A DNA stretch of 63,177 bases, the filler included, from Collodictyon triciliatum (lineage: Eukaryota), in NCBI GenBank assembly GCA_043381765.1. It is 5 parts of 5 records of this genome, joined end to end, with 100 filler letters (N's around TTAATTAATTAA, not from the genome) between each part and the next. Parts side by side here need not be neighbours in the genome. Positions count along the whole stretch, not along the records: positions 41,551 to 55,277 come from JBHJMP010001935.1; positions 55,378 to 63,177 come from JBHJMP010002037.1; 3 more parts are not named here. The stretch is one strand, 5' to 3'. Shown here in pieces: positions 44,701-58,800 of this stretch. Both the position numbers and the translations under genes were made by a program. The notes beneath the pieces were generated by a model, which worked only from the letters and a program-made list of their open reading frames with translations, did no database searches and was not told where the DNA came from. How positions within the stretch are numbered: the first letter of the stretch is position 1; each line of letters begins with the position of its first letter.

Positions 44701-47700
44701 TGAACAAATGCATATTATCCGGAGACTCTATCCATTCAACTTGTTATCCCACTTTTGTTTCGATAGAGGCTTGGGATTTGTTGGTGATGGTATGCAAGTG
44801 ACAGACTTCATGTATTTGAAAAGGCAGATGATTCTATCAAGGTACCCTGCTATTATGAGTCTTGATTTTTTATCCGACATATAAATCATCCCCTTGGCTT
44901 TGTTTTCTTATTTCTCCTTTTAAGCTATAAATGGCTCCAATCAAAGTTATCTTCATGCGGAAGCGAAAAAATGCCTCTCGCAGTTCTGGAGAAACTTGTT
45001 AAAGCCTGGCATCAGTGAATTTCAAATCGAGAGTAAAGCAGAAGATTTTGAAGTCCTGGAGAAGATGGCTCTTTCGTGCTATGAAGGAATCCTGAAGAAA
45101 TTTCCAAGGAACAAAGAGGTCCTTCGGTCCTTTGGTCAGTTCTGGATGGACATATATCGCAACGATAAAATCGCTGGAGAGTATTTCTCTCTCGCAGATG
45201 AAATCGAGGAAGAGGAAAGTCAGGTGATGGAAAAAAAAAAATTATCCATCATAATCTAACGAAGGATTGTTTCAATCGTGAAAACCTAAAGTGTGAGTCA
45301 ATTAATTTGTTCTCGAAAAAATTGAATAACAGAGGCACTCTAAGGCCAGGTATGAAGGAGGTCCTTCAACTGGGAATATCTCCCATGTTCCATTTCATGA
45401 AACTTCCACAGATGGTGGGCCTATGAACGTAATGCCTTCATCATCTCATTTGATAATTTCATCTTCTATATAACTGGTACCCATGTTTTCATCAATTAAT
45501 ATTTATTCATTTATTACATAAAGTATAATTAAAATATTAGAAACTATCTGCCCTCCCTGAGATAGAGAAGACAAAAAAGCGTGCGGTGGATAACGAAAGC
45601 ATTTCTGAATATACAACATCTAGTAAAGAGAAATCACGGTAATTTCCTTTATCAAAATCGGTAATACTAAATGCTAACTGATATAACTGAATACGGCCCT
45701 GTAGATTGAGGCTGCTTAAAGGTAGAATAAAACAAATACAGAACATAGACATTGCAATGGAGTCCCCTGCTGTGATTAAATTCTCTCGTATTCTTGCGAT
45801 AATGCAGATTCTCCTCTTTGTTGTTCCACTAACAGGTTTTTCTTTTTCTGATATGGCCATGTTCATTCTGTGTAAAAATTTATTTCTTTTTTGATTTATT
45901 CAATTCAAGGATAAAATTATATTTCTTAATTCATTCACCAGACTATACTTCAATTAAAATTATTGTGAATTTTTGTATGGCATAACCTCGCTGCAATTTG
46001 AATCGAATAGAAGGGGAAAAAATGATTGTGATTTGTAAGGATTTTATCATCTAAAATGGCGGTCAAATATCCCACTTTTAGGCTTTGCCGTTTTTACAAA
46101 ATCGTTAAAACTCCTTCAATATAACGCTGAAGTATTGGAATCAGTGCACCAGCAGATTGGTAGATTTGAACAAATTACATATTCAGTTCGGTCTCAGATT
46201 CTCAACCACGAGGTTTTGTTCATATTTGGTTTGATAACTAAACATGATAATTGTACTATAAATGCACATCATTGTTTGATATTAAACATTTACTTAAGGG
46301 ATTATCCTTTAGATTATCCTTTTGGGACCGGGTCACTATGGATGTTCATCGATTGATAACTGCATAATAGAATCTAGAGGAAATGTCTCTGTTGAAATAT
46401 CTGACTTTCTAACTGCAAATATTATGCTATACAAGGACCTAAACCCATCATTCGAAGGAATTAGGGAGTATCTATCGAAAGGTCCTATCAACCTCGTTTT
46501 CTACACAGGCTCTGAATTGGAACCGAGAAATGAACAACTGAGTTTTCTGGAAGCAATAAATTATTATGGAACAGCAGCAAGTGATGTCATATCTGAGAGT
46601 GAGATATTTTTTCTGTCAGAAATGTGATAAATGTTCATTGCTTCAGAGTGCACTCACTTTTTTTTAAAAAAAAATGTAATTAAGGTCTACGAGCTAACCT
46701 TACCAAAGACCCAAATTATTTATTTGTCGTAAATAACGGGCCAAGTACCATTTTTAATGGTCTCATTCATCTTGAAAGATTGGTCTTGGAACAAGAGATA
46801 TTCTTGATGAATGAGTTTTTTGTCATATTTGGCTCTCTGATGGGGGTGATTGTCCTCAGTATACCATTGTTGGCTCTCGTTTGGATTCCTAATTATGTAA
46901 AAGTCCGTGAAGAAATCAGTGCTCTCGGTAAACTACGTACAATTCCCAGGGCAGGTAATTTTCATGAATTCCCTCCATAGTTGGGATTGTTTCATGCTTT
47001 TTTTCCCTTTATTCGATTCAAAGTGGGATTATTTCATGCTATCAATGATAACGCACTTGCATTAATTTACAACCTCATTCGAATAATTATACAAGGAATT
47101 TAATGTTATAAACCCACCAGAAATCATCGGAATGTGTCAGCTGTATCGTTCAAGCAAAGAATCATCCGAAGATGATGATATCGGAAATTATGTGATGAGC
47201 ACTCGAGTTTTAAAAAGGACCTATACATATCAAAGAGTTTCTGTCCTATGTTCTATTTTCCTGGCTATGATTGGATTCACTATCATCATTTCGTTAGGAA
47301 TCAGTCAAGCATCCATGTATATAAACCCTTGATTTTATTTTAAAAGTTTTTTCCTTTATTCGATTTTTTATTTTAAAAGTTGAATAAAAACATTGACTAA
47401 ATAGGGGTTACTATTGTGTGAATCGATTAATATGTATTATTTGCCATTTACTTAAATATATTACAAAAATAAGGCTATCTCCAAGGACGAGTGAAGCCTC
47501 TCTTCGAAAATCATACAGTGCGTCCGCATATTACAAACTCCGAGATATGTATCTACACCCGAGCGTGACCGAGGAAATGAGACAGGACCTAGAAAATATG
47601 AGAGAGGTACGTACTGCGAATAATACAAATAAAACAGCATACATTTATCACACATTTATTTCGTTAATTCTTTAAAATATAGAATATGATGAGAACCAAT

Positions 47701-55848: not shown

Positions 55849-58800
55849 TTATGATGCTTTGGACTGCAGGACTGCGTCGAGGTCGATGATGGCTTCGTGG
55901 GTCAGGGTCTGTGGGTCGGGATCGGATTAAAGAGTAGTCCGTTCGTGTGGTTGCGGGATGAAAGGTCTGCGTTGTGGTGTTACTTTACCTCTGGTGCGGA
56001 CGAGGTAACAAGGACGTCGTCTTCCAACCGGATTCCGATTCCCCGGAGGCTGAGTTGATTGTTTTTATTATTATTCATTATTAATCATTTCGTCTGCCTC
56101 TTCTCTTTTTATCCTTTAAAGGTAAAGTCTATATATTACTCAGCTGGGATGTCGGGCTCGTCTGGGATGTAAATGCCGGGCTCTACGGTGACAATCATCC
56201 CCCTGTAAAAAAGGAAGACGAAAGAAAAAAGACAGAAAAAAGAAAATAACTATTAAACAGAAGGAAAAGGAGAACAATAAATAAGTTGGATGCTACACGT
56301 TACAAACAGCTTTAGTTTTGAACCAAAAGGAGGAAGGGTATATCTCACGCACGGGACGAGCTTTGTTGATGTCGGAATGATTGGTGTGTCGTGGACGTCC
56401 ATTCCCAACCAATGGCCGATGGAATGCATGTAAAACCGCGTGAAATTCTATGAAAGTATGCCACTATGAATACTACGTAGTCCTAAATATATAGGTACAG
56501 CCGGGAAGCATGACAATAGGATATGTTATGATGGGCAAAAATTTATCATATTTTATCAAATTTATGACATTATGATTCAGAATATACTCTAGATTCGATG
56601 TTTTCCTGGACAGTTCCTTTCAAAAGGCCAAGCTTTATTTTTCCCCGTAAGTTACCAAGTAAAATGAAATAGTTATGTAAATAATTACAAACTTAAAAAA
56701 AATGAGACACATAAGGGTGATATGTATGTAATTAAAGTACATCAACAAGGGCCTGAGTAAGAAGTTTGATGGATGTTTGGTGGTTTCCTTGGTGGCTATT
56801 GCCTGGGATACAAAGCTACATGAAACGGAAAATAATAATTTAGTCTTTAGCCAGCATCTCCACCATCCTGCACAAAATTGAAAGGAAGAATAAAAAAAAA
56901 ATTAATAATTTAGTCTTTAGCATTCCAGATGACTAGCTCTGTTTTTTCTTCTTCTCTCCTTCATCCATTCATTTTTGATATGAAAGCGGAAAAAAAACTT
57001 TGCCTTCAATTACTGTCGTAGCTAGTTGATTACTACACACTGTGAATTTTGAAATACCTTTGTAATATCCTTTAGCACCCCGTGAACAGCCTCATAAACA
57101 TCTGCTTGTCCCTTCGTCATAGTTTCTATTTGGTTTGTTAGGAGATGAACCCTTATATGCTCATAAAGAGAAAACGGTGCCACTGTTATTATGATTTCAA
57201 TATACTGCGTATTTGTGTGGTCAAGTATACAACAAGTTACTTCCTACTGGCCAGGTTCTTGTAATATCGCTTGAGTAGCCATACAACTCACATCCAGAAT
57301 CAACCAAAACCAAAGTCCCATCGCTTGCCGTAAATATTATGATATATGTGTTTATTAATTGGTATTCACTAACAAGGTAAAATTGATTTTTCACTTTCCG
57401 TTTCAATTTAATAATAATAATAATAATAATAATAATAATAATAATAATAATAATAATAATAATAATAATAATAATAATAATAATAATAATAATAATAATA
57501 ATAATAATAATGTTTTAAAGCCCACTCAAGGAATTCATCGTTTCGGACGTAATGTAATGTGTTTGCACGTGAACCTCCGGCAACAACAGGTGGATATGCA
57601 TGCCACTTAGTAAAGACAATGTGATTAATAGGTGTGAGTTCTATAGAAAGATAAGCATACCTACCAATCCTCCTTTTTGTCGAAATTCGAATTCCAATTT
57701 CGCATCGATGAAACTCTCGTTAATTCCCGGACGAACGGATTTAATAACCTAGTTGTGAAATACCAAAAAATAGGTTCAAAATATTTAGACATGCTTCTTA
57801 AGATTTGCATGTTTCGTTATAATGAATAAATGGATTAATGTAAAACAAAAACACCAAAGCCAATATCCCCACCATCTTGCACAAAATTGAAAAGAGGAAT
57901 AAGAAAATGCACAAACAAAACAACAAAAAACAACAAAAAACAGAGATTCGACAAACTTCATTGAACGATCGGGCGGATATAGAACAAGCTTTTCTCATCA
58001 TTTGTTGTTCTATTAAATTATAAATCAAGAACAAGAATATATGTGGTGTATAAACCACGTTTGTAGTGAAACTAAATATAATTGCCTCGAAACTACTTAT
58101 ATGTTATTGTTTTTGTAAATGTATTTTTTTCCTTTATTCGATTCAAAGTTTGTAAATGTATTTTAAAGTAATTCGTTAATGATATCTAACCAGCAGCTGA
58201 TTTTACATTCCTCATGGATTGTACAAGAAATCGATTGTCCACTAAGCCTTTTCCATCTAAAAAGAAGATCGAAGATATTCAAAAAGCTGATGAATTGATA
58301 ACATCTAGACAATTATAAAGAGCAAGCTTATAATTTTATAAGATGCAAACAATATAGTCGTAAATACATACTGGATGAATTGAAGTAAGACGGATCAAAC
58401 TGCGAGTGCAAGGATTGGTCGGCGTATATAACATCAACTTCTCTTGCATACTTTGACAGCACAGATGATAAGTTGGACATCGGCTGTGCCTGTTTGTATA
58501 TTTCATTATATTTATGAGTGGGATGACATCAACTAATCTTTTATTTTCTGAATAACTAAGTCACATAAGATAATATCCATCGTTATGTATGAGCAAAATA
58601 ACCTCATCTACACCAAACATGTCTTTTGAAGCATCAACACCGTTTCTGGGGCCATCCCATATTTCTCTGATTGAATTTTACAAAAATAAATGATTTTTTC
58701 CTCAAATAAAGTTAGTTATTGACTGCATGTATGGGCGATATTATGTCCATCAAGGAAAGAGATTACTACCTTTGTCTGTCCTTCGGTTGAACGAACAATG

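Follow-up and report, generated by a model that had tools for sequence, protein, structure and literature searches.

Short insertions in Collodictyon triciliatum are truncated copies of an L1-type LINE with a preferred 5' end close to the LINE 3' terminus

The genome of the eukaryote Collodictyon triciliatum (GCA_043381765.1) contains thousands of very short insertions that carry the extreme 3' end of a long interspersed nuclear element (LINE). From a 63,177-nucleotide stretch of this genome, made of five parts joined end to end and called the window below, and from pattern counts over the whole assembly, we conclude that these insertions are almost certainly truncated LINE copies with a real peak in the position of their 5' ends. 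Window coordinates are positions along the whole joined stretch. Element positions are counted on the element strand with the final A of the terminal AATAAA as -1, such that an end reading CTTTG starts at -16 and one reading ACTTTG starts at -17. An earlier note on this DNA had listed four copies with a common boundary, and all four (4/4) do terminate in ...GATTCAAAGT, at 7634, 10755, 47024 and 58149. On the minus strand each of them reads ACTTTGAATCGAATAA(A)GG(G) followed by a short A-run. Their content is the last 16–18 nt of an L1-type LINE, GG and about 6–10 A, together with a 16–17 bp target-site duplication (TSD); the TSDs are clean at two of the four copies (16/17 and 16/16 identical) and old at the other two:

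7609–7634, minus strand: short LINE-tail insertion; apparent end -17, with GG and A-run; TSD 7594–7609 / 7635–7651 old and diverged
10732–10756, minus strand: short LINE-tail insertion; apparent end -18; poorly kept TSD 10715–10731 / 10757–10773
46998–47024, minus strand: short LINE-tail insertion; GGG and A-run; end -16 to -18, two bases common to the TSD
46982–46998, no strand assigned: TSD copy 1 of the 47024 insertion; 16/17 identical to 47024–47040
47024–47040, no strand assigned: TSD copy 2 of the 47024 insertion
58124–58149, minus strand: short LINE-tail insertion; end -16 or -17, one base common to the TSD
58112–58127, no strand assigned: TSD copy 1 of the 58149 insertion; 16/16 identical
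58149–58164, no strand assigned: TSD copy 2 of the 58149 insertion

A smooth genome-wide distribution of 5' ends, which the earlier note had named as evidence against a shared boundary, is not what we found: the distribution has a peak. A 13-nt core of the terminal motif has 2,834 exact matches in the genome, compared with 2 for the reversed control, and exact-pattern counts were used to partition the copies into 5'-end classes. These gave 217 ends at -12 (control 17), 198 at -13, 354 at -14, 303 at -15, 813 at -16 and 520 at -17, with 844 at -18 or longer (by subtraction from 2,834), 557 of which extend to -22. The core is preceded by CCTT in 173 of the 354 ends at -14, and these are largely members of a sister subfamily, B, discussed below; the four copies above belong to family A. 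Expressed as per-base stop rates, the values from -12 to -17 are 0.067, 0.065, 0.125, 0.122, 0.373 (95% confidence interval at -16, 0.35–0.39) and 0.381, with a mean of 0.10 across -18 to -21; because rates from exact patterns take in point mutations, the flanking values are inflated. A small extra bump is seen at -26 (42 exact matches).

Sampled loci were then re-scored with mismatch tolerance and weighting by class. They were taken from the start of the contig order and are not a random sample. The re-scored count leaves out the window copies, the long copies from the LINE search and 17 B loci from a long pattern, along with doubtful matches and B copies estimated at 309 and 182, respectively. 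Among the resulting family-A ends (∼2,760), 24% lie at -16, 20% at -17 and 8% at -15, and 6% extend to -60 or further. The two bases of the peak therefore hold ∼44% of copies, and the other ends form a long continuous tail. When copies were resolved by their TSDs (83 peak copies), -16 accounted for 23–37% and -17 for 10–19% of family A, the spread reflecting the assignment of shared bases; chance turns 31% of true -16 ends into apparent -17 ends. The single common boundary of the earlier note thus survives as a preferred stop, in the form of a narrow -16/-17 band with a long tail and not as one base. Its choice of ACTTTG as that base was off by one position: the A is often target DNA, and the commonest end in the genome falls one base further 3', at the C of CTTTG. 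It is highly improbable that smooth early truncation, combined with selection of short inserts and chance matches, mimics this boundary. Short ends are common anyway, with ∼94% of sampled family-A ends (weighted) below 60 nt, and the chance shift from -16 to -17 blurs positions, but the stop rate triples at -16/-17 and then returns to about 0.10. Neither length selection nor chance matching gives such a shape, and the stop-rate profile already largely refutes this explanation.

Within the window, the four copies have apparent ends at -18 (47024 and 10755) or -17 (7634 and 58149); once shared TSD bases are discounted, the 47024 copy ends at -16 to -18 and the 58149 copy at -16 or -17. Calculated post hoc, the probability that 4/4 fall at apparent -17/-18 is ∼0.002, a value that reflects the choice of copies counted. 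Further window copies were sought with an exact 16-mer search and a looser scan. Five exact 16-mers are present, far beyond chance, and the looser scan added five more short copies: one ending at -11 to -9, one near -40, two old copies within the band and one interrupted by an N gap (23366). Six of the eight scorable short window copies fall in the -16 to -18 band. The copy ending at -11 to -9, with a perfect TSD, sits ∼320 bp from the 47024 copy. These copies and the LINE sequences of the window are as follows:

47347–47365, minus strand: shorter copy, uncounted in the earlier note; end -11 to -9; perfect 16-bp TSD 47333–47348 / 47366–47381
45972–46022, plus strand: longer truncated copy; end near -40; diverged TSD 45959–45972 / 46022–46034
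35542–35568, minus strand: old diverged copy; end in the -16 to -18 band; diverged TSD
45887–45911, minus strand: old diverged copy, either of subfamily B or a mutated A; begins CCTTG, at about -16
19051–20203, plus strand: 5'-truncated LINE body; C-terminal ORF2 with zf-RVT (PF13966, E 2e-7)
20611–20653, plus strand: 3' end of the LINE at 19051–20203, beyond an N gap; variant GCTGT, degraded tail

The short copies match the exact 3' end of LINE copies, and loci with LINE body finish with the same motif, GG and A-run. At locus L032, for example, the end motif, GG and A-run are reached 91 nt past the ORF2 stop. The LINE-linked copy of the window (20611–20653) does read on as GCTGT, as the earlier note had reported. 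This sequence is a variant, however, and other LINE copies have GCTAC or GCTGC, so that the 47024 and 10755 copies match the element for one more base, to -18. A 504-bp piece of the window LINE gave 530 first-look candidates in the genome, 40 of which were scored and were 91–100% identical; these figures are not a copy number. Its ORF2 carries RVT_1 (E 3e-17) and zf-RVT (E 2e-7) domains, and an APE region was found by tblastn (E 3e-13) in L473, which lies upstream of L044 on the same contig and forms with it a long, broken copy; there was no intact LINE among the copies examined. The best match of ORF2 to a solved structure is human L1 ORF2p (E 3e-17, vs 3e-9 for R2). The nearest full-length relatives (phmmer on representatives) are ∼35% identical APE–reverse transcriptase (RT) proteins with zf-RVT in 3/4, and a search for longer homologous proteins gave no match. 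Judged from its predicted domains, the parent is an L1-type LINE of APE-RT-zf-RVT architecture. Parts of it also occur in 20 sequencing runs (shares 0.06–0.32), mostly freshwater metagenomes. A distantly related RT fragment at L144:2385-2914 is only 27–33% similar (to P0006/P0007/P0009), which indicates that a second LINE lineage is present. In addition, copies cluster at some loci (L046, L099, L024), with an inverted second tail right after the LINE end or a tandem double tail; the same group includes three copies within 1.5 kb, of which two are inverted ∼170 bp apart.

Features of the target sites identify the short insertions as products of target-primed reverse transcription by the L1-type LINE. 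A TSD was found, at an acceptance score of at least 11, in 191 of 387 distinct copies, with a mode of 16–17 bp (83/191). The nick site is (A/T)TT|A(A/T), with frequencies of 0.61 for the first T, 0.75 for the second and 0.90 for the A (109 copies). The G-run that follows the motif has two bases in 220/387 copies and reaches up to 16, and the A-run is 6–10 long in 218 of the 299 copies with AGG plus A, which is short for L1. The variable number of G suggests slippage or untemplated addition at priming. G-runs of 16 or more follow AATAAA in L243, L211 and L463. In five other loci (L024, L234, L265, L276, L368) a T-run instead of an A-run comes directly after AGG(G)AA; these may be T-rich targets primed with two A, or small inversions.

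An alternative is a separate mini-SINE, that is, a short interspersed nuclear element with a source locus of fixed start that is mobilized in trans, and the thousands of nearly identical copies and their modal start would suit such an origin. We consider it very improbable. The ends range from -11 to beyond -60 with only 23–37% at the mode, so there is no fixed full-length 5' end, and 16 nt is too short for an internal promoter. Flanks are unique except for the TSD, and among 174 copies no upstream head is shared except the two LINE 3' untranslated regions (UTRs). TSD divergence is equal in peak and long copies (0.021 vs 0.020), which also rules out a separate young burst of peak copies.

The 5' junctions were analyzed in 161 family-A copies with 13–23 bp TSDs. 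Of the 83 peak copies in this set, 35 have blunt junctions, 30 have shared bases and 18 extra bases, and 42 long truncations are like them (14 extra, 15 blunt, 13 with microhomology). The peak is position-fixed and specific to family A, and its joins are blunt or untemplated. The earlier note had pointed to a terminal T common to the TSD in two copies, and this T is indeed the first base of the right-hand duplication at both 47024 and 58149; its reading as microhomology failed, since such sharing occurs only at the chance level of a simulated null. Microhomology-guided joining was ruled out because the frequencies match that null. For comparison, the Kojima study (PMC2912911; this and the other papers are cited here from excerpts) reports chance microhomology in full-length L1 and Alu, nearly 80% in truncated L1, and extra bases at 12–15%. 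Here about a quarter of junctions carry extra bases, and microhomology at chance level is closer to full-length L1 and Alu than to truncated human L1; the junctions are thus of the template-jump type. Two further candidates for the cause of the peak were rejected. A fixed length of complementary DNA (cDNA) is ruled out because tail length and 5' end do not trade off (rho -0.12, p 0.20, n 119); the stop is therefore tied to sequence position and not to cDNA length. On sequence grounds alone, cutting of the cDNA by the LINE endonuclease would occur at a TT/AAA-like site near -12 and not at -16.

Subfamily B provides a natural control. At L284, 537 bp of ORF2 that are 91% identical to family A are followed by an unrelated UTR of ∼220 nt, which rules out that B is a SINE. 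The A and B UTRs have only the last ∼14 nt plus GG and the tail in common; the B UTR is longer and forms several hairpins (z -1.78 for L284:1010-1140). B loci include L284:456-1215, L268, L281, L417 and L420, and the CCTT core has 173 matches in the genome. Among 69 distinct copies from 70 CCTT loci, 17 end at -16 and 3 at -17, and the others are scattered as far as -40 and further; on visual inspection, two diverged long B copies and three mutated A copies are among the 17. Even with these left in, the -16/-17 share is 20/69 in B vs 1,333/2,177 in the TTTG class (Fisher p 1e-7). Since B copies are mostly short as well, early termination is general and the sharp peak specific to A. Rfam gave a single match, at E 0.86, for the three B loci searched. 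Upstream of the B copy at L281, on the opposite strand (1036–1329, minus strand), is a 97-aa frame that we take to resemble Fanzor/TnpB-type proteins; Pfam returned no significant match for it.

What distinguishes the A UTR next to the peak is a hairpin at -37 to -16, which B is without. Its outer pairs are G-37:C-16 and U-36:A-17, and a 4-bp core joins -34 to -31 with -22 to -19; the A and G alleles at -19 are both able to pair with U-34. In the predicted fold of the whole 3' UTR of L032, the least diverged copy, -15 to -13 are nearly unpaired (0.07–0.22) while C-16 and A-17 form the outer hairpin pairs (pairing 0.59–0.77). Our tentatively preferred explanation, plausible but short of probable, is that the peak reflects an RT stall at the foot of this weak hairpin followed by a jump to the target. 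The endonuclease would nick the bottom strand, and the RT would prime ∼9 nt 3' of AAUAAA. About 25 nt on, it would reach the first paired bases of the A hairpin, probably protein-bound, and pause. The complex would still hold the nicked top strand, to whose 3' end the cDNA terminus, often extended by 1–3 untemplated bases, would jump, and this jump would fix an insertion of ∼25 bp; events that pass the pause point would end more thinly further upstream. A stall at the A hairpin would explain the weak peak in B, and a pause followed by a jump to an already nicked top strand agrees with the model in the excerpt of PMC7617806.

Several observations weigh against a stall. The hairpin is weak, at -4 kcal/mol, and z is -0.25 when a 47-nt piece is folded and +0.55 when the UTR is folded whole. 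In L046, a G-allele copy, a different fold wins at 37 C, with C-16 still paired. Microhomology at the 83 peak copies is at chance (58/32/5/4% vs a null of 54/33/8/5%), which is at least equally compatible with run-off at an RNA end. Finally, human ORF2p is described as highly processive, and the authors favor host cleavage of the RNA, in the consulted part of PMC10830420. In the folding of the LINE 3' UTR that the earlier note had proposed, two folds touch C-16, and neither beats shuffled sequences in stability (z -0.4 to +0.6 for 3'-end pieces).

The second of these folds, a terminal 5-bp stem from -16 to +1 closed by C-16:G+1, belongs to an alternative in which the RNA template itself ends at the peak. 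Here a host nuclease would cut or trim the LINE RNA, while ORF2p is bound, to the edge of a protein-protected terminal motif. The RT would then copy the defined ∼25-nt remnant (terminal motif, GG and short A tail) to its end, add 0–3 bases and jump to the target, and the stem would form once the upstream sequence is gone. The 5' foot of that stem lies exactly at C-16, and the last ∼14 nt plus GG, as the sole 3' UTR sequence common to A and B, look like a bound element. Chance microhomology and the extra bases at 18/83 peak junctions are as expected from such an end. In template jumping the added base is usually A. Target T is in excess at blunt junctions (33/53 vs 24.1 expected, z 2.5; T in 67 of 100 listed BCTTT matches by hand count, p 8e-4), and this fits the one-base overhang pairing of a template jump described in part of PMC8594491. 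A template end thus accounts better than a stall for the junction type, and it agrees with the view, in the portion of PMC10830420 cited, that RNA cleavage, and not weakness of the RT, causes truncation. On the other hand, B shows no sharp peak although its terminal motif is the same and its ORF2 is 91% identical, the terminal stem is worth only -0.3 kcal/mol, and the long truncations carry the same junction signature, so that the peak is not singled out. We regard this template end as a possible but rather unlikely explanation. As between the two causes the earlier note had offered, a strong RT stop and a discrete RNA of ∼20–25 nt, the former is favored.

A more specific version of RNA cleavage is that Argonaute, guided by a small RNA, cuts the LINE RNA between -17 and -16 and the 3' piece is then retrotransposed, or that a Dicer product is the template. 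A single-base mode with ±1 scatter is what slicing would leave, and a guide over -7 to -27 would suit A better than B. Such guides follow a 1U/10A rule, and their products are phased by 21–24 nt. The tenth base from -16 is G, however, so a guide would start with C and not U; no 21–24-nt phasing is seen, the next bump being at -26, and the other ends form a continuous tail. Slicing is therefore quite improbable.

Other features of the window were recorded alongside. A 30-bp unit repeated 36 times at 27712–28797 creates a long minus-strand open frame with WETSKPKDAG-like repeats, and FG-GAP_2 repeats (E 8e-17) lie in a 399-aa frame at 4154–5353 (minus strand). Exons at 15786–16679 and 16828–17850 (minus strand) presumably belong to a ribosome-biogenesis (Brix-type) gene and to NAC beta/BTF3. 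ARAGORN detected no tRNA gene in the window.

The cause of LINE 5' truncation is described as not well understood in the excerpt of PMC10830420, the candidates being RT stalling or premature strand switching on one side and destruction of the RNA on the other. New here are the genome-wide profile, the mode at -16, the null test for microhomology and the contrast between A and B. About 2,800 insertions locate the event at one position, 16–17 nt before the terminus, and subfamily B, whose UTR differs, is the control. The sharp stop offers an unusual handle on why such elements often copy only part-way. Scars of ∼25 bp probably fall under the usual thresholds of repeat annotation, in which case LINE activity would be badly undercounted in such genomes. 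If nuclease trimming of the template were the cause, a nuclease-based defense would turn most retrotransposition into harmless 25-bp scars and leave its footprint recorded to the base in thousands of insertions. Our literature search, whose coverage took in only a minority of subscription papers, found no LINE described with a stop peak so near its 3' end.

Compared with known systems, the parent element resembles human L1 in its APE, RT and zinc-binding C-terminus, its TT|AA-type nick, an AATAAA just before the A tail and variable 5' truncation. The TSDs of 16–17 bp compare with a human L1 peak of 14–16 bp (PMC2912911) and a range of 7–20 bp (PMC7617806), as given in excerpts of these papers. 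Human L1 truncations are often a few hundred bp long according to a passage of PMC10830420, whereas most copies here are below 40 nt. Also unlike human L1, ∼44% of ends fall at one two-base position, and ∼6–10 A follow a variable G-run; and in place of the ∼80% microhomology reported for truncated human L1 (PMC2912911, excerpt), the level here is that of chance. Stringent LINEs (ZfL2-1/ZfL2-2 and UnaL2; PMC4176376, in part) similarly keep a short 3' terminus while the rest of the UTR differs by subfamily, and small 3'-end stem-loops can be drawn here too. Unlike in those L2-clade elements, as that part of PMC4176376 presents them, the folds here do not exceed shuffled sequences in stability, and recognition of the terminus is only putative. 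The 5' junctions, with joins that are blunt or involve a single base and with untemplated additions, recall template jumping by R2/BoMoC and L1 ORF2p; in excerpts of PMC8594491 and PMC10830420 such jumping was shown in vitro at template ends, whereas here it is inferred from genomic junctions alone. SINEs with a LINE 3' tail are likewise non-coding, flanked by TSDs, LINE-derived at their 3' end and present in many copies, but the insertions described here have no head or promoter, and the positions of their 5' ends run without a break into the LINE UTR. By the features tested, they are 5'-truncated L1-type insertions that differ in their extreme shortness, sharp peak, short G-plus-A tail and lack of a microhomology excess.

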